NCBI GenBank assembly: GCA_035692365.1
Contig: DASSIB010000030.1
Location: forward strand, 1-44,754
Reading direction: 5' to 3'
DNA length: 44,754 nucleotides
From: Candidatus Limnocylindria bacterium
Lineage (GTDB): Bacteria > Chloroflexota > Limnocylindria > QHBO01
Both the position numbers and the translations under genes were made by a program. Positions within the stretch are counted from its first letter, which is position 1. Every line of letters starts with the position of its first letter. Below the pieces are notes generated by a model. That model did no database searches. It was not told the DNA's origin and was given only the letters and a program-made list of their open reading frames with translations. Below, piece after piece: positions 2,759 to 11,923 of the stretch.

Positions 2759-3384
2759 CGGCTCACCGTCGCGGTCGAGGGAACGCCTCGAGGCGCCTGG
2801 TGGTACCACGGCTCGATCGTGGCGAGATCGTCGCCACGTGGATCCGTCAGGAGCCGCGCGGCCCCGAGTCGCGCCACCGCGGCGGCGGCCTCGTGCGGCG
2901 GCAGCGCACCGGCCAGCTGGAACGATGCGGCGAGCTCCGACGGAGCCGCCAGGATCGACCCCTTCAGCAGGCCGGACAGCTCCGCGGCGGCAACGATCCG
3001 CGGCTCGGGATCGCCGCGCAGCAGCAGGTACGCGTCCTGGGCGCCGGCGCGGGCGACCGCGGCCGCGGCGCGATGCTCGGCCTCGAGCCAGGCCTGCAGG
3101 CTCGGGACGCCGACGAGCGGCAGGCGCAGCGCGAGCGCGATCCCCTTGGCGAGGCTCATCGAGACGCGCAGGCCGGTGAACGAGCCGGGGCCGACGCCGA
3201 TCGCCAGCGCCGTCGCCTCGCGCAGCTCGCGCCGGGCGCGCGCCAGCAGGACCAGGAGGCGCGGCAGCAGCTCGCTGGCCTGGCGTCCCTCGCCCGTCCA
3301 GCCATCGGCGGCGAACGCCACCCCGTCGGACGACGCGAGCGCCAGCGACGGGTCGCCCGAGGCGCTCTCGATGGCGATGATCAT
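2749..3384 (-). CDS. tsaB: tRNA threonylcarbamoyladenosine biosynthesis protein TsaB (YeaZ family)
   Basis: ORF 2749..3534 trimmed to ATG 3384 (MIIAIESASGDPSLALA), which forms ATGA with the tsaE stop. ASKHA-like TsaB N-terminus and conserved context. Confidence 0.88.
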   Translation of the reverse strand: MIIAIESASGDPSLALASSDGVAFAADGWTGEGRQASELLPRLLVLLARARRELREATALAIGVGPGSFTGLRVSMSLAKGIALALRLPLVGVPSLQAWLEAEHRAAAAVARAGAQDAYLLLRGDPEPRIVAAAELSGLLKGSILAAPSELAASFQLAGALPPHEAAAAVARLGAARLLTDPRGDDLATIEPWYHQAPRGVPSTATVSRWP

Positions 3385-3857
3385 CCCTGCACCAGCGCGT
3401 CCTGCGCGAGGCGGAGGTGCGACGGCCCCACCGCTCGCCAGCTGATCCGTCGCTGGTCGCTCCCGTCCGCCTCGGGCACCAGTGTGAGCTCGAGCCGCTC
3501 CGCCGGGAGGCGATCGGCGAGGCGATCGGCCCACTCCACCACCGCCACCCCGGTGGCCTGCCGGTCGTCGAAGAGGCCGGCGGCGAGCGCCTCATCGGGA
3601 TCGTCGAGGCGGTAGGCATCGATGTGGAAGAGGCGCAGCCGGCCGAGGTGCTCGTTCATGAGCACGAAGGTCGGGCTGTTCACCACGCTCGTCACGCCGA
3701 GCCCTTCGGCCACTCCCTTGGCCAGCTCAGTCTTCCCGGCTCCCAGCGGGCCGATGAGGGCGACGAGCGCGCCGGCGTGCGCATGCGAGCCGAGCGCGTG
3801 GCCGATGGCCCGCGTCTCCTCCGGCGCGGCAGTACGGAGATCACCGGCGGCTTGCAT
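3381..3857 (-). CDS. tsaE: tRNA t6A37 biosynthesis ATPase TsaE (YjeE family)
   Basis: 158 aa with the P-loop GPLGAGKTELAKG. Lies upstream of tsaB-rimI-tsaD. Confidence 0.9.
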   Translation of the reverse strand: MQAAGDLRTAAPEETRAIGHALGSHAHAGALVALIGPLGAGKTELAKGVAEGLGVTSVVNSPTFVLMNEHLGRLRLFHIDAYRLDDPDEALAAGLFDDRQATGVAVVEWADRLADRLPAERLELTLVPEADGSDQRRISWRAVGPSHLRLAQDALVQG

Positions 3858-3883: not shown

Positions 3884-4924
3884 TCAGCGGCCCTCGGGCA
3901 GGACCGTGGCCTCGATGTTGGCCAGCGGGACAGGCGCAAGGCGGCCGTCCTCGAATCGGACGAGCGCCATCCGCGTCGGGATCCCGGACTGGGCCGCGTG
4001 GAGATCCTCGAGCAGCGCGACGAGCACGCCACCTCGCCCCTGGAAGGGGCGCCGATTCGCGATGATGCGATCTCCGACCTTCGCCAGCGCGCGGCGGGAT
4101 GGGAGCGGTGCGGCGTCGTACACGTACAGCAGCCCATCGGCGCCGAAGAGGCTGGCGACACGCCCCGCGTGCGCCCGGAACCAGCTGAAGAGCTGGGGAT
4201 CGATCCCGACCTTGCCGAAGCCCTCCACCAGCAGGATCCCGAACGAGCCCGTCATGCCGCCCGCCTCGCGCCGGCGGCGCTGGATCGCCTCGAAGTCGCG
4301 CAGCTCCTTGTCCAGCACGCCGCCGAGCACGATCCCGGCGACCCCCATCGCCCGGGCGCGCGTGAGCGTCTCGGCCGAGGCGCGCGATCCACCGACCAGG
4401 ATCTTTCCGGTGGCACCGGCGTCAATCGCCGCGGCTCGCAGCTCGTCCCCGGGGTTCGGAACCCCGACCACCAGCTCCCCGTGCACCGCCTCGCCGCTCC
4501 CGCCGATGCCCCGCAGCCGGGCCGCCGGCACCTCGATCACCAGCGAACCCTCCTCGACGTCGCGAACACGGCCGCGGACGTGGCCGATGACCGGCTCCTC
4601 GGGGCCGAGCGGGGCGAGGAGAAGCGACCCGTCGCGTCCGGAGGCCGCCAGCACGAGCCCCGCGACCGGTGCGAGCACCACGCCGGCTCCCTCCACCATC
4701 GCCAGTGGCTGCTCCGCCTCGACCCGCTCGCCGGGCCGGACCACGAGCAGCTCCTCGATGTCGCCGGGCTGCCGGTGCAGAACGCGGGTGACGGGTACCC
4801 GAACGGGGGCCATCGCTCCTCGCCGCAGCCCGATCACCTCGTCGGGCTTGATCTCGGCGCCGACCCGCGCGCTGACGACCGTCCCGCGCGGCAGGTGGAT
4901 GCGATGGAGCGAGGCCTCGATCAT
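3884..4924 (-). CDS. Hypothetical cytoplasmic protein (cluster member 7) with a lipoyl/biotinyl-like barrel-sandwich motif and a KOW/SH3-like C-terminal motif
   Basis: 346-aa ORF with strong GC3 bias and no hydrophobic segments. VRPGERVEAEQPLAMVEGAGVVLAPVAGLV resembles the barrel-sandwich-hybrid signature. KVGDRIIANRRPFQGRGGVLVAL resembles a KOW motif. The ATG at 4924 overlaps the upstream stop as ATGA. Confidence 0.7.
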   Translation of the reverse strand: MIEASLHRIHLPRGTVVSARVGAEIKPDEVIGLRRGAMAPVRVPVTRVLHRQPGDIEELLVVRPGERVEAEQPLAMVEGAGVVLAPVAGLVLAASGRDGSLLLAPLGPEEPVIGHVRGRVRDVEEGSLVIEVPAARLRGIGGSGEAVHGELVVGVPNPGDELRAAAIDAGATGKILVGGSRASAETLTRARAMGVAGIVLGGVLDKELRDFEAIQRRRREAGGMTGSFGILLVEGFGKVGIDPQLFSWFRAHAGRVASLFGADGLLYVYDAAPLPSRRALAKVGDRIIANRRPFQGRGGVLVALLEDLHAAQSGIPTRMALVRFEDGRLAPVPLANIEATVLPEGR

Positions 4925-6588
4925 GCCGCCCCCTCGCTCGGAGGCCGGACCTCGCGCAGGAAGGTGTCACGCCAGGCGCCGAGGACGGCCCGCCGGTCGT
5001 CGCTGCGTCGCGGGAGGAGGAGTGGCGCGTCTCTCGCGTCGAGCACCACACCGACGGCGCCGCCGCTGACCGATGCGCGCAAACGGCGCGCGCGTCGCGG
5101 GGAGCCGAGACTCACAGACTGATCGAGCTCGATCTCGAGCTCGGCCACCTGTCCGCGCGGCAGCGGCACCACCTCGAGCTGGCCGGGCCGCACCTCGATC
5201 GGGCCGAGCGAGCGCCAGCCGACGCGGTGGACGGTGACGCGCATCGACGCGTGGCCAGAACGTCCGCCGCTGCAGACGACCGCCGCCCCGAGCGGTGTCA
5301 GGAGGTCGTCACGCAGGGTCCCCAGGCCCTCGACGATCTCGTCGTCGCGCAGCGCGCCCAGCGGTCCCAGCGCGCCGGCGGGGTCGATCGCGAGCTGCAC
5401 GATCCCGATCGGCCGGACGCCGTCCAGCAGCAGCTGCATCGACTGCGCCGGCAGGGGGGCGTTCCCGATCGTGCGCCCGGAGCCGATGAGCAGATCGATC
5501 CCCGCGGGCTGGGGACCATTGGCGGCCAGGTCGGCCAGCAGGTCGCGGGCGGCGCCGTGGACCACGGCGAGCTCCTCATCGGTCTGCGGGATCGAGCCCG
5601 GCCTGGCGCGCAGGTTCTGCAGGGCGTCCGCCACGGCCAGCTCGTCGATCGCCAGCGCCAGGCTGTGCGCGATGCGCGCCGGGCCTCCCTGCGCGGTCAG
5701 GGTCGGCGATGCGAGGCCGCCGAGCGCGACGACGCGGCTCTCGGCCATCCCGTTCTCGTCGGCGCTTGCCCAGGTGGCGTAGCGAGCGCCGAGGTCCACG
5801 CCCACGACCCGCAGGCGCGACGCGCGCGCGAGCTCGGCCACCGCCCGGCCGAAGCCGATGGGAGCCAGCTGGCGCGCGGCTCCGCGCTCGACCAGCCGCT
5901 CGATCAGGCCGTCGAGATAGCGTCGCAGTGGAAGGAGGTTCTCCCGCTCGGCAGAGGGGCGTGGATTCGCGACCGCTCGCAGCACGCCGGGTTCGAAGAA
6001 GGCGCCGACGCGCTCGGTCAGCCCCGCCGAGCCGGCCCACACCACCGGCGATCGACCGCCGCCGCGAGCAGCGGCGACGAGGCCCGCCACCTCGAGGGCA
6101 CCCTCGCCACCCTCCTCGTCGAACCCGCCCGCGATCAGCCACGCATCGACCTCGGCCGATTGGAGGGCCCCGAGTCGATCGACCACGGGCCGCCCGTCAT
6201 CGACGGTGACTGCCTCCACCACGACCCAGCCGGCCGCCTCCGCGGCGCGCCGTGCCGCCTGGCCGGAGAGCTCCGAGGAGACGGCAGCCAGGGCGATCCG
6301 GCCCGGCCGGGCGGGCGTGTGCACCGCGATCCGCGGGGCATCGGCGAGGAGGGTCGCGATCCGTCCGGAGACGCGGGGATCCGCACGGCCGGCCAGCCGT
6401 GCGGCCAGGGTGGCAATCAGCTCGGACTCATCCCATGCCGAGGGCTGAGCTGCGTGCGCCGCGATCCGCCATCGGCCCAGGGCGCGTCCGACCACGGCCG
6501 CCTTCGTCCAGGCGGAGCCGATGTCCACCAGCAGCGACAGCTCGGCGGTGGCGCGGCCAATCTCACGCGGGCGGGCCTCGGTCGTCAT
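4921..6588 (-). CDS. ASKHA-fold ATPase-like protein, GlmL/MutL-like (glutamate mutase L family) (cluster member 6)
   Basis: ORF 4921..6606 trimmed to ATG 6588 (MTTEARPREIG), which forms ATGA with the upstream stop. LLVDIGSAWTKAAVVG matches the D-x-G-S-x-x-T-K phosphate-1 motif of the GlmL/MutL branch. A second VVGVDLGARYATW motif is present. The family call is by eye only. Confidence 0.6.
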   Translation of the reverse strand: MTTEARPREIGRATAELSLLVDIGSAWTKAAVVGRALGRWRIAAHAAQPSAWDESELIATLAARLAGRADPRVSGRIATLLADAPRIAVHTPARPGRIALAAVSSELSGQAARRAAEAAGWVVVEAVTVDDGRPVVDRLGALQSAEVDAWLIAGGFDEEGGEGALEVAGLVAAARGGGRSPVVWAGSAGLTERVGAFFEPGVLRAVANPRPSAERENLLPLRRYLDGLIERLVERGAARQLAPIGFGRAVAELARASRLRVVGVDLGARYATWASADENGMAESRVVALGGLASPTLTAQGGPARIAHSLALAIDELAVADALQNLRARPGSIPQTDEELAVVHGAARDLLADLAANGPQPAGIDLLIGSGRTIGNAPLPAQSMQLLLDGVRPIGIVQLAIDPAGALGPLGALRDDEIVEGLGTLRDDLLTPLGAAVVCSGGRSGHASMRVTVHRVGWRSLGPIEVRPGQLEVVPLPRGQVAELEIELDQSVSLGSPRRARRLRASVSGGAVGVVLDARDAPLLLPRRSDDRRAVLGAWRDTFLREVRPPSEGAA

Positions 6589-7229
6589 CGGAGCACGGTA
6601 AGCCAATCGCCGAGCAGGAACCCGATCCGGTCGACAAGCAGCGAGAGGCGGCTGACCACCAGGAAGCCGATCCAGCCGCCGATTCCCCCGACCAGCAGCC
6701 AGCGCCCAACGGTCGCGGCCCGCGTCGTGAGCCTCCCGCGCGGCGCGCCATGCAGGAAGGCGAGGAGTACCAGGGTCGTGATCGCCAGCGAGATCAGCTC
6801 ACCCGCCAGGTCTCCCGATGCAACGCGGCCCGCCGGCAGCGCGGCGGCGATCTGGGGGAGGATCGTCCCCACCACGGCGCCGCCCAGTGCATATGCCGCG
6901 ATCCCGCCGACGAGAATCGCCCCCACCGGCGCCATCGCGGGCCGCGGCAGCCACGAGGCGCCGACCAGCATCCCCGCCAGCAGGAGCGCCGGCACGAGCA
7001 GCGCGCTCTCGTTCGGGCGCTCCACGAGAGGTACAAGCAGCCGCGGCACGAGCACGTCGGTGATCGCCAGCAGCACGAGGTAGCCGGTGGCGAGGCCGGC
7101 GAGGAGGTGCTGCATGACCACGAAGAGGCGCCGCCAGCCGGCGAGGTACGACCACACCGCGATCGTCACGATGGCCGCCACCCAGGTGGCGAGGGTCCCG
7201 CCGAAGTCCGCGCCGCTGAATCCATTCAT
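6585..7229 (-). CDS. Polytopic membrane protein, unknown function (cluster member 5)
   Basis: 214 aa with about six hydrophobic segments (for example LATWVAAIVTIAVWSYLAG and VGRWLLVGGIGGWIGFLVV). ATGA overlaps at both ends (7226-7229 and 6585-6588). Confidence 0.72.
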   Translation of the reverse strand: MNGFSGADFGGTLATWVAAIVTIAVWSYLAGWRRLFVVMQHLLAGLATGYLVLLAITDVLVPRLLVPLVERPNESALLVPALLLAGMLVGASWLPRPAMAPVGAILVGGIAAYALGGAVVGTILPQIAAALPAGRVASGDLAGELISLAITTLVLLAFLHGAPRGRLTTRAATVGRWLLVGGIGGWIGFLVVSRLSLLVDRIGFLLGDWLTVLR

Positions 7230-8098
7230 GCCGGAGCACGGCCCTTCGGACGGCGACCCCTGCGGCGGGCGAACCGTCGCAGGGCCGCCTCGGCCAGGAC
7301 GGCAATGGCGGCGAGCATGCCGACCAGCATCGGCAGCGGCCCGGGGGTGGGCCCTGGGTTCGACCCCGCGCTGCCCGCGGCGGCCTCCACGTACGCCACG
7401 CCGTCCCGCAGCGTTGCGAGGAGTGCAGTCAGCTGCCCGGAACGCAGGTACGGCTCGAGCTCCGGGTCGAGGAAGGTCGGCGCGATCGCGACCAGTGGCA
7501 GCTCCGGAAGGCGGCTCCCTACCTGCTCGACCCAGCTCCGCGCCGAGATGTCGCTCCCCGAGACGACGAGGACCATGGCAAAGGCGCCGATACCACCGCC
7601 GGCGTCGCGAATGGCGTCGGCGGTCGGACCCTGCGCGCTCTCCGGGACGACCGACGCGATGCTGCGCACCAGCCCCGCCTCCGCGCCCGCCACGAAGCCG
7701 AGATCAGCGGGCGGCTCCCCCGCGCCGCGCGCGATGCGGTCCCGCTCGGCCGCGGCGATGGCGCGGCCGTCCGGCGTGAAGCTGACGATCGCCAGCCGGG
7801 CATCGTGGGCCGCGAGGTCGTCGATCGCGACGCGCGTCGCGGCGCGAATCTCCGGGTAGGTTCCGAGGTCCGCGTCGAACGCGATCAGCACCAGAGCGTC
7901 GTTCGGCAGCTCCCCGATCGCCCTCCGCAGCTGGTCGACGCGCGAGCGGTCGGGGCTTGCCAGCTGGAGCCCGCCGGTGCCGTTGGAGAGCAGCGAGGCC
8001 AGCGCCAACAGGAGCAGGAGGAGCAGCGCCGGAGCCGCGCGGCGCAGGCGGGCGACGCGCTCCGTGTCCAGCACGGCCGGCTCCGCGCTATTCGTCAT
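7226..8098 (-). CDS. Bitopic membrane protein, unknown function (cluster member 4)
   Basis: ATG 8098 (MTNSAEPAVL) is chosen over TTG 8113. N-terminal anchor APALLLLLLLALASLL, a soluble domain of roughly 220 aa, a C-terminal TM (LPMLVGMLAAIAVLAEAAL), then the basic tail RRFARRRGRRPKGRAPA. Confidence 0.68.
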   Translation of the reverse strand: MTNSAEPAVLDTERVARLRRAAPALLLLLLLALASLLSNGTGGLQLASPDRSRVDQLRRAIGELPNDALVLIAFDADLGTYPEIRAATRVAIDDLAAHDARLAIVSFTPDGRAIAAAERDRIARGAGEPPADLGFVAGAEAGLVRSIASVVPESAQGPTADAIRDAGGGIGAFAMVLVVSGSDISARSWVEQVGSRLPELPLVAIAPTFLDPELEPYLRSGQLTALLATLRDGVAYVEAAAGSAGSNPGPTPGPLPMLVGMLAAIAVLAEAALRRFARRRGRRPKGRAPA

Positions 8099-8705
8099 CG
8101 CCGTCCATCGCAAGCAGCGAGCGTGCCGCGCTCACCGCCACCAGGATCCCGATCCCGATCAGCAGCCCGCGGAAGACGCCGGCGAGCGGCACGTCACGCA
8201 CCCAGCCGGCGCTCGCCGCCAGCCAGTCACCGGCCTGGCCACCGACCGGCAGCAGCAGGATGATCACCACCGTGGCCGCGCCGGCCATCAGCGTCGTCTC
8301 GCGCACGCGGAGCGCAAAGCCGCGCCGGAAGGCACCCAGCAGGAAGATGAAGAGAAGGGCGAAGACCGATGCGGCGATCGGCGCCAGCAGCGCCGCCACC
8401 AGCCAGAGGACAGCCGGGTCGGCCGTCCCGCTCGAGCCGGGCCGCAGCCCCGCCACTAGGATCGCCGCCATCCCGAGCAACAGCGCGATCGAGCCGATCG
8501 AATCGCCGTCCCCGGCGGCGAGGCTGCGGGCGTGGTGCGCCACCAGGGTCGCGCCACCACCGACCGCCGCGGCGGCGGCGAGGAGCACGAGCAGCTCGTT
8601 GACCGCCCCGGCCGCAGCATCGAGCGATGGATTCACGACCATCAGGTCCAGCAGGACCACGAGGCCGGTGACCAGCACGATGGCCGTGAGGATCGAGCGC
8701 CGCAT
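8088..8705 (-). CDS. Polytopic membrane protein, unknown function (cluster member 3)
   Basis: 205 aa with about six hydrophobic segments. ATG at 8705 lies 5 nt after the upstream stop. Acidic C-terminus MDGDDE. Confidence 0.72.
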   Translation of the reverse strand: MRRSILTAIVLVTGLVVLLDLMVVNPSLDAAAGAVNELLVLLAAAAAVGGGATLVAHHARSLAAGDGDSIGSIALLLGMAAILVAGLRPGSSGTADPAVLWLVAALLAPIAASVFALLFIFLLGAFRRGFALRVRETTLMAGAATVVIILLLPVGGQAGDWLAASAGWVRDVPLAGVFRGLLIGIGILVAVSAARSLLAMDGDDE

Positions 8706-8710
8706 CTAGC

Positions 8711-9553
8711 TCAGCGCCCCGTCAGGAAGGCAGCGACCCCCGGCCCGCCGGCCCAGGTGAGGAGCGAGCCGACCAGGAGGAGCCCGACCGCCCCCCAGAT
8801 CAGCCGATTCGCGGCGAGGACTGCGGTCCGCGCATGCCCACGGGCACCGATCTCGCCGGCGGCCTGGAACAGCTCCGGCCCGATCAGGGTGCCATCGCCG
8901 TCGAGCAGTGGCCCGGCCGCCTGCGAGGCGCTCGCCGTCGCGGCGAGGCTCCATTCGGCGTCGCCCAGCACCCCATCCAGCACCAGCAGCCCTTCCTCGC
9001 CAAGCCCCCCGGCCACCACGGCGACCCCGTGCGGCTGCGCCGTGGCGATGGCGAACGCGGCAGCCGCGGCGCGACCCTCCCCCACGTACTCGACCGCCGC
9101 CGAGGAGGCGCGCTCCGGCGTCGCGGTCCGCCGATGCGATCCCGCGAGCGTTCCCTGGGCCAGCATCCCACCCACGGGATCGTTGGTGGTGACCCGCAGA
9201 GGGACCCCGGCCCTGGCCGCAGCGTCGGCGACGCGGCCGAGCAGCGGCAGCGCCGCCAGCGTCTGGAGGCGCTCGGTGGCAGACGCCGCGCGGCTGACGC
9301 CGGCGCTGCCGAGTGAGATGGTGGCGTCCGCTCCAGACTCCGCCGCGAGCGCCATCACCCGACCGACGCGCGCCAGCCCGCCGAGCCCGGAGCCGCTCCA
9401 GCGGGCGCCGGGTCGGGCAACGAGCGAGAGGAGCACGAGCAGCACGACGAGGATCGCCATCGTCGGCGCGGCGCCCAGTCGGGTCTCGGAGGAGCCGATG
9501 GCATCGGTCACAAGGCCGACAAGGTAGGAGGCGAGCTCGCCGAGATTGGGCAT
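8711..9553 (-). CDS. Membrane-anchored protein, unknown function (cluster member 2)
   Basis: 280 aa. TM near the N-terminus (TMAILVVLLVLLSLVA), an Ala/Gly-rich central domain of roughly 200 aa, and a C-terminal TM (LIWGAVGLLLVGSLLTWAG). ATG 9553 directly abuts the upstream TAG (9554-9556). Confidence 0.7.
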   Translation of the reverse strand: MPNLGELASYLVGLVTDAIGSSETRLGAAPTMAILVVLLVLLSLVARPGARWSGSGLGGLARVGRVMALAAESGADATISLGSAGVSRAASATERLQTLAALPLLGRVADAAARAGVPLRVTTNDPVGGMLAQGTLAGSHRRTATPERASSAAVEYVGEGRAAAAAFAIATAQPHGVAVVAGGLGEEGLLVLDGVLGDAEWSLAATASASQAAGPLLDGDGTLIGPELFQAAGEIGARGHARTAVLAANRLIWGAVGLLLVGSLLTWAGGPGVAAFLTGR

Positions 9554-9850
9554 CTAGCGGATACCGTCCTTGCGCCCGCGGGCCAGCGTGCCGGCGATGC
9601 GGTCGTAGAGGGCCGGGTCCTCGAGGGCCCGTCGCACGAGGCCGAAGCGACGCGCACCGAGCAGCGGGCTCAGCAGCGGCCCAAGGAAGATGGCCCCCTG
9701 GCGAAGGAGCGGCACGAGGGGTCGATGGGCGTCCATCAGGATTGCGGCCGGCGCCCCGATCCCGCGGCGTTCGAGCTCATCGACGAGTGCATCGGCCCGC
9801 TTCACGCTGGACCCTCCTGACGAGACACCTGATTCGGTCCGCTCACCCAT
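9554..9850 (-). CDS. Small hypothetical protein (cluster member 1)
   Basis: ORF 9554..9922 trimmed to ATG 9850 (MGERTESGVSS...) so that it does not overlap alr (stop at 9870). 98 aa with one hydrophobic stretch (GAIFLGPLLSPLLGA). The weakest CDS call in the block. Confidence 0.55.
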   Translation of the reverse strand: MGERTESGVSSGGSSVKRADALVDELERRGIGAPAAILMDAHRPLVPLLRQGAIFLGPLLSPLLGARRFGLVRRALEDPALYDRIAGTLARGRKDGIR

Positions 9851-9869
9851 GGTCGCTCGCTCGACGGCC

Positions 9870-11024
9870 TCACCCCTCGTCCGTGGCGACCTCCGGCAGA
9901 TGCACGCGCGGGAGGCGGTCACGAAGGGCGGTCGTCACTTCGTAGTTGATGGTGCGTCGCTGGGCCGCGACCTCATCGGCGCCGATGCGGGACTGCATCT
10001 GCTCGCCGATCAGGACGAACTCGTCGGCGTAGGTTACATCATCAAGATCGCCCAGATCGACGGTGATGCCGTCCATGCTCACCGCGCCGACGACCGGGCG
10101 ACGCTCGCCACGGACCAGCACCCAGCCGTTGTTGGCGTGTGCGCGCGGCCACCCATCCCCGTAGCCGATGCCGAGGGTGGCGATGCGTGTCGAGCGCTCG
10201 GCGCGGAAGCGCAGCCCGTACCCGATCGCCTCCCCCGCAGCCAGGCTGAAGATGCGCAGTGGGATGGCGCGCAGCGAGAGAACCGGCTTCAGTCCCGGGT
10301 CGCGGTCGGCCGCCCAGGCCGGGACCATGCCGTAGAGCGCGAGCCCGGGCCGGATCGCATCGCCGAAGGTGCCAGTGCGCGCCAGGATGCCGCCGCTGGC
10401 GGCGAGGTGCACGAGTCCGGGATCCGCGCCGGCCGAGCGCATCGCATCGAGGGCCTGGGCCAGGCGCAGGACCTGCACGTCGGTGTACGCCTCGTCCTCG
10501 CCGGGGACGGCGAGGTGGCTGAAGGTCCCCGCCAGGCGCAGGTGCGGGCTGCGCACGATGCGCAGCGCCAGCTCGACCGCCACCGCCGGGTCGCTCCCCT
10601 GCCGTCCCAGCCCCGAATCGATCTTGAGCTGGACCGATGCCCGGCGCCCAAGCGCGGCGGCGGCGGCTTCCAGCAGCTCGATCCCCGCCTCGTCGTAGAC
10701 GACCGGCTCCAGGTCGGCGGCGACCGCCCGCTCCGCCTCCGGAGCCCCCAGCGCCCAGAGGATGAGCAGCGGCGCGGTGATGCCCGCGTCCCGCAGCTCG
10801 AGCGCCTCCCCCAGCGTCGCCACCGCGAGGCGCTCGACGCCGTGCGCGAGCAGGGTGCGCGACACCTCGATCGCGCCATGTCCATAGGCGTTCGCCTTGA
10901 CGACGCCGATGACGCTGCGCCCCTCGCCGGAGAGCCGACGCACCACCGCCAGGTTGTGCACCAGCGCGCCGTGGTCGATCTCGACCCAGGCGCGGTGCGG
11001 GCTTCGACCACCGGAGAGGCTCAT
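9870..11024 (-). CDS. alr: Alanine racemase
   Basis: ORF trimmed to ATG 11024 (MSLSGGRSPHRAWVEIDHGAL), which forms ATGA with the nnrD stop. Contains the VVKANAYGHG PLP-lysine motif. Confidence 0.93.
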   Translation of the reverse strand: MSLSGGRSPHRAWVEIDHGALVHNLAVVRRLSGEGRSVIGVVKANAYGHGAIEVSRTLLAHGVERLAVATLGEALELRDAGITAPLLILWALGAPEAERAVAADLEPVVYDEAGIELLEAAAAALGRRASVQLKIDSGLGRQGSDPAVAVELALRIVRSPHLRLAGTFSHLAVPGEDEAYTDVQVLRLAQALDAMRSAGADPGLVHLAASGGILARTGTFGDAIRPGLALYGMVPAWAADRDPGLKPVLSLRAIPLRIFSLAAGEAIGYGLRFRAERSTRIATLGIGYGDGWPRAHANNGWVLVRGERRPVVGAVSMDGITVDLGDLDDVTYADEFVLIGEQMQSRIGADEVAAQRRTINYEVTTALRDRLPRVHLPEVATDEG

Positions 11025-11923
11025 TCGCGCTTCCCGCGGCTCAGCTGCTCGATCGCCGCCGGAAGCAGGTTGGCGATGTCGCGCGCCACCACCCCGGCGT
11101 GGCCGATTCGTTCCTCCGCCAGGAGACCGGCGGCACCGTGCACGGCGACCCCGCACCCGGCCGCGTCGAACGGGTCAAGCCCCGCCGCCAGGAACGCGCC
11201 GATGGCGCCGGCCAGCACGTCGCCGCTCCCCGCGGTGGCGAGTGCCGGCGTGGCGATGTCGGATCGAAGCAGGTCGCCGGTTGGAGCCGCGATCACCGTG
11301 TGCGCTCCCTTCAACACCAGGACCTGGCCCCAGCGCGCCGCCGCATCACGGGCCGCGTCCGCGCGCTGGTCGTCGTCATCGGCCACCGATGTGCCCGGCG
11401 GCATCCCCTTCAGCCTCGCGAACTCGCCGGCGTGCGGGGTGAAGACCAGGGGGGCGCGGACCGATTGCCACCAGCGCTGCCCCTCGGCCAGCGCCGTCAG
11501 CCCATCGGCATCGACCACGGCCGGGTGGCTCAGCTCACCGATGAAGTTGCGCGCGCGGCGCAGCGTGGTGGGATGCCGCCCGAGGCCGGGACCGATGACG
11601 AACGCCTGGTATCCGGCCGCCTCCGTCGCAAGCTGGCGCCAGCCGGCGGGAGCCGTCAGGCCAGGCGCCTCCTCGGCCAGCAGCATCGAGGTCAGCTCAG
11701 GGACGAGTCCCATCAACCGCATGCCGACCGTCTCGGGCGTGGCCAGGCAGGCGAGGCCGACCCCGGCGCGAATCGCGCCGAGCCCGGTCAGCAGCGCCGC
11801 GCCGCCGTACTCCAGCGAGCCGGCCACGATGAGGAGCCGCCCGAAGGTCCCCTTGTGAGCCCTCGCCGGCCGCTCGGGGAGGCGGCTGGCGACCCAGTCC
11901 TGGGTGAGGGCGACCACCGCCAT
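11021..11923 (-). CDS. nnrD: ADP-dependent NAD(P)H-hydrate dehydratase (YjeF C-terminal domain only)
   Basis: HKGTFGRLLIVAGS, GPGLG and GSGDVLAG motifs of the carbohydrate-kinase-like Nnr dehydratase domain. No epimerase domain is present. Confidence 0.85.
   Translation of the reverse strand: MAVVALTQDWVASRLPERPARAHKGTFGRLLIVAGSLEYGGAALLTGLGAIRAGVGLACLATPETVGMRLMGLVPELTSMLLAEEAPGLTAPAGWRQLATEAAGYQAFVIGPGLGRHPTTLRRARNFIGELSHPAVVDADGLTALAEGQRWWQSVRAPLVFTPHAGEFARLKGMPPGTSVADDDDQRADAARDAAARWGQVLVLKGAHTVIAAPTGDLLRSDIATPALATAGSGDVLAGAIGAFLAAGLDPFDAAGCGVAVHGAAGLLAEERIGHAGVVARDIANLLPAAIEQLSRGKRE

Follow-up and report, generated by a model that had tools for sequence, protein, structure and literature searches.

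RESULTS

Organization of the locus

The window analyzed here, a stretch of 44,754 nucleotides (nt) from contig DASSIB010000030.1 of a Candidatus Limnocylindria bacterium (assembly GCA_035692365.1), carries seven tightly packed minus-strand genes between alr, encoding alanine racemase, and tsaE. We refer to them as G1 to G7 in the direction in which they are read (Table 1). Their products are one small protein (G1), two two-span membrane proteins (G2 and G4), two polytopic membrane proteins (G3 and G5), a predicted ATPase with an ASKHA fold (G6), and a soluble barrel-sandwich/KOW protein (G7). This is the composition given in an earlier sequence-only reading of the window, and the strand, coordinates, and lengths reported there for the seven open reading frames (ORFs) all agree with the ORF table. 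Likewise, every junction was as described when the junction sequences were read again: the G1 stop codon TAG abuts the G2 ATG, a 5-nt gap separates G2 from G3 (TGA-GCTAG-ATG), G3 and G4 overlap by 11 nt, and ATGA overlaps join G4/G5, G5/G6, and G6/G7. Such abutting and overlapping junctions support the proposed translational coupling of the block. No promoter-like sites were found inside it, the single terminator-like match, located inside G1, did not exceed the number obtained with shuffled sequences, and neither Rfam families nor tRNA genes were found in the window. The G+C content of third codon positions (0.80 to 0.90 in the block versus 0.87 to 0.93 in the flanking genes) is in line with that of the neighbors, in agreement with the earlier argument from codon usage that the block is native.

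Conservation of the block

An exhaustive search with G6 over 1.84 billion cluster representatives (50% identity clusters) recovered a family of 880 clusters at E ≤ 1e-3 and 512 clusters at E ≤ 1e-10, many of them of ~575 to 610 amino acids (aa) and aligned to query residues ~19 to 540 at 26 to 35% identity. The C-terminal motif of this family, G-[LVI]-[ILV]-[IV]-D-A-R-G-R-P, is nearly invariant in most members and was confirmed in its strict form in at least 573 GTDB species genomes, one genome being scanned per species. This count is a lower bound obtained with one strict motif and an Anaerolineae-centered alignment; the window's own clade carries DARDAP at the motif position and is therefore not included. 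The best 80 of the at least 573 motif-bearing loci were translated in six frames and searched with the seven window proteins (phmmer), after which the ORFs of 81 loci were clustered all against all.

Chloroflexota are represented among the best 80 loci by Anaerolineae, Thermoflexia, Caldilineaceae, Chloroflexia, and Candidatus Aquidulcis. The other loci come from Planctomycetota (including Brocadiales and Scalindua), Armatimonadota, Eisenbacteria, WOR-3, TA06, Cloacimonadota, and Zipacnadia, together with one metagenome-assembled genome (MAG) labeled Acidobacteriota and one MAG of Symbiobacterium thermophilum. The module is spread over about ten bacterial phyla and hundreds of species, and it is probably present in cultured Anaerolineae and Armatimonadota. 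G6 was found in all 81 loci, G7 in 72, G5 in 66, G4 in 64, G3 in 47, and G1 and G2 in 46 each, counts that are lowered by the many contigs that end within the module. No eighth recurring family emerged from the clustering, in which, antisense shadow ORFs aside, any other family was limited to at most 9 of the 81 loci.

Two gene orders prevail. The order of the window, 1-2-3-4-5-6-7, is that of 29 complete loci, of which nearly all are from Chloroflexota, and the order 1-6-7-2-3-4-5 in 8 loci, plus 3 that lack G1, from Planctomycetota, Armatimonadota, Eisenbacteria, and others. ATGA-type overlaps (gaps of -1) are common at the junctions in other lineages too. For instance, a locus with a G6 that is 28% identical to that of the window (P0424) encodes proteins of 95, 250 (DUF6754), 207, 764, 218, 572 (MutL), and 350 aa. 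The neighborhood survey that had been suggested as a check of the sequence-only reading has thus shown that the seven genes recur as a block across phyla, all seven families being present together in Anaerolineae, Thermoflexia, Caldilineae, Planctomycetota (Brocadiales), Armatimonadota, Eisenbacteria, Symbiobacterium, and others. G1-G6 pairs occur even where no other module genes are nearby; loci with a lone G6 or a G1-G6 pair come from WOR-3, Armatimonadota, and unclassified genomes, where the genes lie around positions 9001 to 10800. In the Symbiobacterium thermophilum MAG (L075, 1725 to 11965), a further group of genes, G1-G1-G6-G7, comes after the module, and the cytoplasmic part is thereby duplicated.

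In some lineages, G6 and G7 form a single polypeptide. G6::G7 proteins of 976 to 1003 aa make up three separate 50% identity clusters (P0310, P0274, and P0283); one member of P0274 is named from Candidatus Ozemobacteraceae, and P0310 has 12 members on independent contigs, 8 of them full-length. The G6 profile matches residues ~5 to 600 of the fusions (E = 1e-152 to 1e-165) and the G7 profile residues ~630 to 1000 (E = 1e-65 to 1e-115). The P0310 locus reads G1 (109 aa), G6::G7 (995 aa), G2 (387 aa, DUF6754), G3 (232 aa), G4 (293 aa), and G5 (311 aa), with all genes confirmed by family hidden Markov models (E = 3e-23 to 4e-83). The occurrence of the fusions within the same module argues for G6 and G7 working as a single unit. 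Together with the co-occurrence of the seven families across phyla, it strengthens the earlier idea that the products belong to one complex.

All close homologs of G6 and G7 derive from MAGs labeled Chloroflexota or Candidatus Limnocylindria, and a profile-based homolog search returned mostly the same Limnocylindria proteins. The actinobacterial frame in which the locus had been placed was therefore wrong. Since the homologs belong to the Chloroflexota class Candidatus Limnocylindria, the alr-tsaE arrangement of Mycobacterium tuberculosis can serve as an analogy only. Within Limnocylindria, the order acpS, Carb_kinase, alr, the seven genes, tsaE, tsaB, rimI, and tsaD is fixed. It is seen on a 2.2-Mb contig (L001, 63% G6 identity), on three contigs with 62% G6 identity (L002 to L004), and in two more distant loci (L088 and L089, 53% and 57%). 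All seven window proteins have orthologs in L001 in the same order, with phmmer E values from 4e-14 (G1) to 1e-211 (G6), which places the seven ORFs far beyond what chance would produce in high-GC DNA. Judged by this conserved order, the block is native and old in Limnocylindria. In some members of the class, alr and G1 are separated by an additional gene with a Macro domain (PF01661; L001, 6267 to 6791; L089, 2810 to 3349).

In the window, alr and G1 are 19 nt apart (9851 to 9869), and the G7 stop codon lies 26 nt from tsaE. At 11021 to 11024, the alr start overlaps the stop of a Carb_kinase-type ORF in an ATGA, which indicates that the coupled gene chain reaches beyond the seven-gene block.

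Features of G6 and G7

G6 matches the Pfam family PF13941 (MutL/GlmL) with 74.1 bits (E = 1.3e-20; cutoff, 27), residues 25 to 354 aligning with model positions 2 to 345, and its orthologs and fusions match the whole 450-position model with 171 to 429 bits; E values of 1e-110 to 1e-128 were reached by orthologs. Scores against curated NCBIfam models were 24.6 (GlmL equivalog NF040745; cutoff, 475) and 22.8 bits for the window protein. A Brocadiaceae ortholog reached 235.9 bits with NF040745, 213.7 with NF040744 (Or-4; cutoff, 600), and 165.4 with TIGR01319 (cutoff, 204), each below the cutoff. In public records, homologs of module proteins go by names such as "hypothetical," "MutL protein," "glutamate mutase L," and "TIGR01319 family." G6 is soluble, with no hydrophobic span in a hydropathy scan.

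The AlphaFold2 (AF2) model of G6 (pLDDT, 92.7; pTM, 0.91) shows an ASKHA core into which an alpha/beta subdomain is inserted. The last ~125 residues (from ~431) form a seven-strand beta domain with one helix, reaching ~110 aa past the Pfam MutL model, in which G509, G510, G513, D517, R519, and P522 are invariant. Positions D22, G24, D265, G267, and G371, which correspond to the phosphate-1, phosphate-2, and adenosine motifs of ASKHA proteins, are invariant or nearly so. By its modeled fold and these three motifs, G6 is a member of the ASKHA superfamily, and the same features predict that it is an ATPase. In close relatives of the window G6, a further motif of the family, GGxDGGA, is altogether gone and the ASKHA phosphate motifs are retained.

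Foldseek comparison with the PDB gave a probability of 1.00 for many ASKHA proteins, with template-modeling (TM) scores that were low overall (0.2 to 0.37). The top group consisted of hydantoinase-A-type subunits (E from 2.8e-9, for N-methylhydantoinase 9h03, to 7e-7), including the acetone carboxylase beta chains 5svc_B and 5m45_B and acetophenone carboxylase 5l9w, at TM scores of 0.25 to 0.32. PilM (E of ~1e-6) and FtsA (7e-6) came next, with TM scores of 0.22 to 0.37, followed by exopolyphosphatase and Hsp70. No PDB chain was significant in single-sequence or profile searches with G6. A likeness of the C-terminal motif to a strand of a hotdog thioesterase (2eis) was dismissed as not significant (E = 0.3). 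Two family members (P0349, 1332 aa; P0286, 1304 aa) have ~700 extra residues before the G6 part, with a Peptidase_M1 domain in one and a bacterial TSP3 repeat in the other; these may be fusions or gene-calling artifacts.

The AF2 model of G7 (pLDDT, 76.7) comprises an N-terminal barrel-sandwich hybrid, a central swivel-like alpha/beta domain with the motif GGS...L.RA...GV.GIVVGG ... TEGFG, and a C-terminal KOW/Tudor-like barrel. A hydropathy peak at residues 73 to 95 corresponds to a beta strand in the model, and G7 is soluble. Among 21 G7 orthologs, 10 match RnfC_N (best E = 9.9e-7; one listed ortholog scored 25.4 bits against a cutoff of 25.6), 2 match NQRA_N, and 3 match KOW; the window protein itself gave a single Pfam match, to Biotin_lipoyl at E = 0.16. 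None of the 21 orthologs matched the Pfam domains SLBB, NADH-binding, 4Fe-4S, NQRA, or NqrA_SLBB, and the G7 alignment contains no conserved Cys or His. Against PDB sequences, the G7 profile found the KOW domains of Spt5, NusG, and uL24, as well as the NqrA N terminus at E values of ~0.04 to 0.06. Foldseek matches were weak and confined to single domains: the central domain resembles the pyruvate kinase C-terminal domain (2e28), AF_0055 (2hi6), and RraA, and the RnfC structure 8ahx_C appeared at rank 50 with a probability of 0.12. A match of the G7 profile to lysozyme, produced by repeats of a 26-residue motif of which no one stretch was significant, was discarded as due to chance.

G1 and the membrane subunits

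G1 is soluble according to a hydropathy scan and probably helical. Its conserved core reads PAIxFLE..PL.F.GSQ..F..P followed by LLEDR..VE.LI.RLE, and its gene lies directly upstream of G2 in the Chloroflexota order or of G6 in the other order. G2 matches PF20539 (DUF6754) with 31.8 bits (E = 1.1e-7; cutoff, 27), and its orthologs carry the same Pfam family. An N-terminal and a C-terminal span surround a domain of ~190 aa, and positive charges follow span 1 and precede span 2, a pattern that, by the positive-inside rule, suggests that the domain faces the cytoplasm. G3 and G5 each have ~5 to 6 hydrophobic spans, with the motifs PLQAT.FSLLAFF.ASAAYRAFRAR and W(I/V)..VP..AG.RGI..G.ALG in G3 and GDNPL..LAEH.FVG...GY, LPQ, and R.SLLIGR..FLL in G5.

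G4 has an N-terminal and a C-terminal span with a domain of ~210 aa between them and the motifs (A/S)FDYDP...E and W(I/V)EQV. Both termini are Arg-rich in the window protein, and the C terminus is Arg/Lys-rich. Most Chloroflexota outside Limnocylindria have a long form of G4, of up to 2666 aa, in which an extension precedes the first span. At its start is a double zinc ribbon (Pfam DZR and Zn_Ribbon_1; E values as low as 7e-13), after which it continues as an acidic, Pro-rich linker with 1 to 37 copies of an IPDWL-like motif. The extension is absent from the window G4 and from the Planctomycetota and Armatimonadota forms. Zinc ribbons that are not preceded by a signal peptide would place the N terminus of G4 in the cytoplasm, and from this and the positive-inside rule we infer that the ~210-aa domain is outside and the C terminus inside.

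No Pfam or NCBIfam family was found for G1, G3, G4, and G5, either singly or, for G3, G5, and G4, as sets of 19 to 23 orthologs, and neither profile searches with G2 to G5 nor single-sequence searches with the larger proteins revealed a significant relative in the PDB. The earlier statement that none of the seven proteins could be placed therefore stands insofar as no characterized system was found, and falls for G2 (DUF6754), G6 (PF13941), and the orthologs of G7 (RnfC_N and KOW), which do match families. Several candidate relationships were rejected. WD40 matches of the G4 profile were taken as artifacts in which a short SxxPDGxxLA motif was summed over repeats with no stretch passing. G3 and G5 are not products of a duplication, as hhalign gave a probability of 0.2 to 0.3% and they are not homologous. 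Paralogy of G2 and G4, at first hinted at by a colinear hhalign match (E = 0.002, 13.5% probability, ~20 sequences each), is not supported, since the probability fell to 2.6% over 70 columns with 46 and 64 sequences.

Gene neighborhoods outside Limnocylindria

The description of the block as inserted between alr and tsaE proved apt for Limnocylindria, where the position is fixed, and not for other lineages, where the module lies in unrelated housekeeping neighborhoods. The sole exception is the Symbiobacterium MAG, in which thiL-tsaE-tsaB-rimI is found 3.8 kb downstream of the module (L075). In every lineage examined, the neighbors are core metabolic or translation genes. In six loci that belong to different candidate phyla (L040, L049, L061, L066, L070, and L076), gcvPA/gcvPB immediately precedes G1-G6, an adjacency that may represent shared ancestral synteny or cotranscription. 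In L066, the gcvP gene (7221 to 8675) overlaps the G1 start at 8668.

Among other neighbors, cdsA and a diacylglycerol (DAG) kinase-type gene are located upstream in the G6::G7 fusion locus of one lineage, a phosphohexomutase gene scoring under the GlmM cutoffs is close by in three lineages, and PspA and two-component genes lie near the module in one Anaerolineae group. The envelope role proposed in the sequence-only reading still amounts to guilt by association, to which the phosphohexomutase and cdsA/DAG kinase genes add weak hints only. A role in defense was rejected, as PADLOC gave no match at E ≤ 0.1 for any of the seven proteins; no mobile-element or defense signatures were seen at the loci examined. 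Taken at face value, the neighborhoods fit a core cellular function without identifying which one.

TABLE 1 Coordinates of the module genes and flanking genes in the window and of long G4 orthologs in their own loci
Feature	Position	Strand	Description
G1	9554-9850	minus	98 aa; ORF table and start codon
G2	8711-9553	minus	280 aa; DUF6754, two-span
G3	8088-8705	minus	205 aa; polytopic membrane protein
G4	7226-8098	minus	290 aa; two-span membrane protein, short form
G5	6585-7229	minus	214 aa; polytopic membrane protein
G6	4921-6588	minus	555 aa; ASKHA fold, MutL/GlmL Pfam family
G7	3884-4924	minus	346 aa; soluble three-domain protein
alr (alanine racemase)	9870-11024	minus	Upstream flank, outside module; Ala_racemase_N and _C, TIGR00492 308 bits
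tsaE	3381-3857	minus	Downstream flank, outside module; PF02367 E = 1.6e-33, TIGR00150 92 bits
Carb_kinase-type (nnrD-like) ORF	11021-11923	minus	Directly upstream of alr
Long G4 ortholog, L022	139-8136		Anaerolineae-type
Long G4 ortholog, L036	3309-8303		Anaerolineae-type
Long G4 ortholog, L045	4455-8318		Anaerolineae-type
Long G4 ortholog, L018	5828-8287		Anaerolineae-type

DISCUSSION

Based on the conserved gene set and the predicted features of its products, we tentatively favor, at a little less than even confidence, the view that the products of all seven genes assemble into a single conserved membrane complex with a housekeeping role and with G6-G7 as its ATP-driven cytoplasmic module. 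A specific envelope role within such a complex is much less certain. In this arrangement, G6 and G7 would constitute the cytoplasmic, nucleotide-driven module, and G1, given its constant place beside G6 or as the first gene of the operon, might be a small cytoplasmic adaptor of G6. G3 and G5 would form the polytopic membrane core, with the domain of G2 as a putative cytoplasmic docking platform and that of G4 as an outward-facing component. The long G4 tail of many Chloroflexota could recruit partners through its zinc ribbons and short motifs. Domain motions that depend on ATP are characteristic of ASKHA proteins and swivelling domains. Conceivably, ATP binding and hydrolysis by G6 would drive a conformational cycle that is passed on through G7 to the membrane subunits, and in this way some component of the envelope or membrane might be moved or put together.

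Several observations weigh against this view. Four loci (L055, L058, L066, and L074) have G6 or G1-G6 with no other module gene within 9 kb, so that in those genomes G6 may work without the membrane parts, or the remaining genes may sit elsewhere. The GGxDGGA motif (G6 residues ~150 to 165), which is kept across the family, is degenerate in the window clade (AGGFDEEGGE). G2 to G5 yielded neither a conserved Cys or His nor a signature of transporters from which a substrate might be guessed. Finally, the link to the envelope comes from gene neighborhood only (alr and glmS nearby in Limnocylindria) and is weak as it stands.

It is possible, though we would put this still more guardedly, that the module represents an undescribed class of membrane machine in which a GlmL-branch ASKHA ATPase, together with a barrel-sandwich/swivel/KOW partner, powers transmembrane work through four membrane subunits of no characterized family. 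The module would then be part of the inherited housekeeping equipment of Chloroflexota, Planctomycetota, Armatimonadota, some Firmicutes-like bacteria, and several candidate phyla. In known systems, such membrane work is powered by an ATP-binding cassette (ABC), AAA+, or P-type motor. Full-text literature searches on DUF6754, PF13941, TIGR01319, and "glutamate mutase L" of Chloroflexi, in which most subscription journals were not covered, found no papers, and among the listed titles and abstracts on GlmL/ASKHA and actin-like proteins in Chloroflexota and Armatimonadota none looked relevant. The module appears to be an undescribed system, the sequences of which are already in the databases under generic names.

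A first alternative is that the module is a membrane-tethered actin-fold scaffold that follows the logic of MreB-MreC-MreD-RodZ, FtsA-FtsN, or PilM-PilN-PilO. G6 would bind the cytoplasmic tail of G4 or G2 and might oligomerize on the membrane so as to position envelope synthesis instead of powering transport. We consider this unlikely, although several observations speak for it: PilM and FtsA form the second group of structural matches to G6, the module includes small polytopic proteins and two-span proteins whose tails are cytoplasmic, a long G4 with up to 37 IPDWL-like motifs would make a multivalent recruiting tail, and in Limnocylindria the module lies among genes for cell wall precursors. 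By sequence, however, G6 is on the GlmL/hydantoinase branch (PF13941), the characterized members of which, to our knowledge, do not form polymers, and its TM scores to PilM and FtsA are low (0.22 to 0.37). Furthermore, the window G4 lacks the repeat tail, and the N termini of the short G4 and of G2 are not conserved and contain no PilN/FtsN-like peptide.

Alternatively, G6 could be an ATP-dependent enzyme of the hydantoinase/acetone carboxylase type that works at the membrane to phosphorylate or activate some small molecule. G7 would be its partner and G2 to G5 a permease or anchor, such that uptake and activation are coupled. The top structural matches of G6 are indeed hydantoinase-A-type subunits, and fused members of the family weakly match Pfam Hydantoinase_A and Hydant_A_N. 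However, the module has no HyuB-type partner, the fold of G7 is a different one, TM scores are just 0.25 to 0.32 with no PDB homolog by sequence profile, and G3 and G5 match no known permease family. We regard this explanation as quite unlikely.

The module might also be a distant, cofactor-less relative of Rnf/Nqr, with G7 as the RnfC/NqrA cap, G3/G5 as the RnfA/E or NqrD/E pair, and G2/G4 as RnfG/NqrC-like subunits. The RnfC_N and NQRA_N matches of the G7 N terminus and the borderline NqrA chains point in this direction, as do the similar number and sizes of subunits, with two six-span proteins of ~200 aa and two anchored proteins. Yet motifs for binding Fe-S, flavin, or NADH are missing from the subunit alignments, as is any conserved Cys or His, none of the 23 plus 23 G3 and G5 orthologs has an Rnf-Nqr Pfam match, G3 and G5 are unlike RnfA/RnfE in not being homologous to each other, RnfC is found no higher than rank 50 among the structural matches of G7, and the ASKHA ATPase has no counterpart in Rnf/Nqr. 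Such a relationship is therefore very improbable.

Hardly credible is a true GlmL function for G6 as the reactivating protein of a B12-dependent mutase, with the other genes as unrelated cotranscribed neighbors: despite the "glutamate mutase L" label of its homologs, the passed Pfam MutL threshold, and a swivel-like central domain in G7 as in diol-dehydratase reactivase, the curated GlmL and Or-4 cutoffs are not reached, no B12-mutase subunit genes were found in the gene tables or among the recurring families of the 81 loci, and the co-occurrence of six partner families with G6 across phyla shows that these are not chance neighbors.

If the seven proteins do form one ATP-driven complex, it would represent a membrane machine of a new type, with an actin-fold ATPase at its base. 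The module is carried by hundreds of species, most of them uncultured, among which are abundant Chloroflexota of soil and freshwater as well as anammox Planctomycetota. Four of its seven parts (G1, G3, G4, and G5) have neither a Pfam or NCBIfam family nor a solved relative, and G2 is merely a DUF. A function, once defined, would annotate thousands of genes now called "hypothetical" or misnamed "glutamate mutase L," could expose a step, hidden so far, by which these phyla build their envelope or membranes, and would widen the known roles of the GlmL/hydantoinase branch of ASKHA proteins. The module is also a tractable target, as it is self-contained, offers a Rosetta-stone fusion, and reaches into cultivable lineages, as seen from a MAG assigned to Symbiobacterium thermophilum.

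As far as the comparisons made here reach, the module is outside every characterized system that was checked (GlmL, RnfC/NqrA, Rnf-Nqr, PilN/O, FtsN, and the PADLOC models), while sharing elements with several of them. GlmL/MutL proteins are accessory proteins whose genes accompany those of B12-dependent glutamate and ornithine mutases. Like them, G6 passes PF13941 and has an ASKHA fold with an inserted alpha/beta subdomain. In contrast to them, it scores under all three NCBIfam cutoffs, has an extra C-terminal beta domain, is never adjacent to mutase genes at the loci examined, and is accompanied by G7 (72 of 81 loci) and usually by four membrane proteins. The hydantoinase-A-type subunits resemble G6 in fold and themselves hydrolyze ATP, but their enzymes are soluble, unlike this membrane-linked module, which encodes nothing HyuB-like. 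G7 may have its N-terminal barrel-sandwich hybrid in common with RnfC/NqrA and is, as in the case of NqrA, a soluble protein encoded with membrane subunits, whereas it has swivel-like and KOW domains in place of the SLBB, NADH-binding, and Fe-S domains.

The PilM, FtsA, and MreB modules likewise combine an ASKHA cytoplasmic protein with two-span or bitopic and small polytopic proteins. The predicted layout of G4, with a tail in the cytoplasm, an anchor in the membrane, and a domain on the outside, recalls that of RodZ and FtsN. Unlike in those modules, G6 is on another ASKHA branch, G1 to G5 and G7 show no similarity to PilN/O, MreC/D, RodZ, or FtsN, and no recurrent pilus or divisome genes lie nearby in the 81 loci. 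DdrA, of the diol/glycerol dehydratase reactivase DdrA-DdrB, is an ASKHA ATPase with an inserted swivelling domain. The present module has a comparable pair, an ASKHA ATPase and a swivelling beta/beta/alpha-type domain, split over G6 and G7 and fused in some lineages; it differs in that sequence similarity is undetectable and no DdrA/GdrA chain was among the listed PDB matches, in having no target enzyme, and in its association with membrane proteins. By analogy, then, the module most resembles membrane-tethered actin-fold modules in its logic and reactivase-type ASKHA-plus-swivel chaperones in its domain content.

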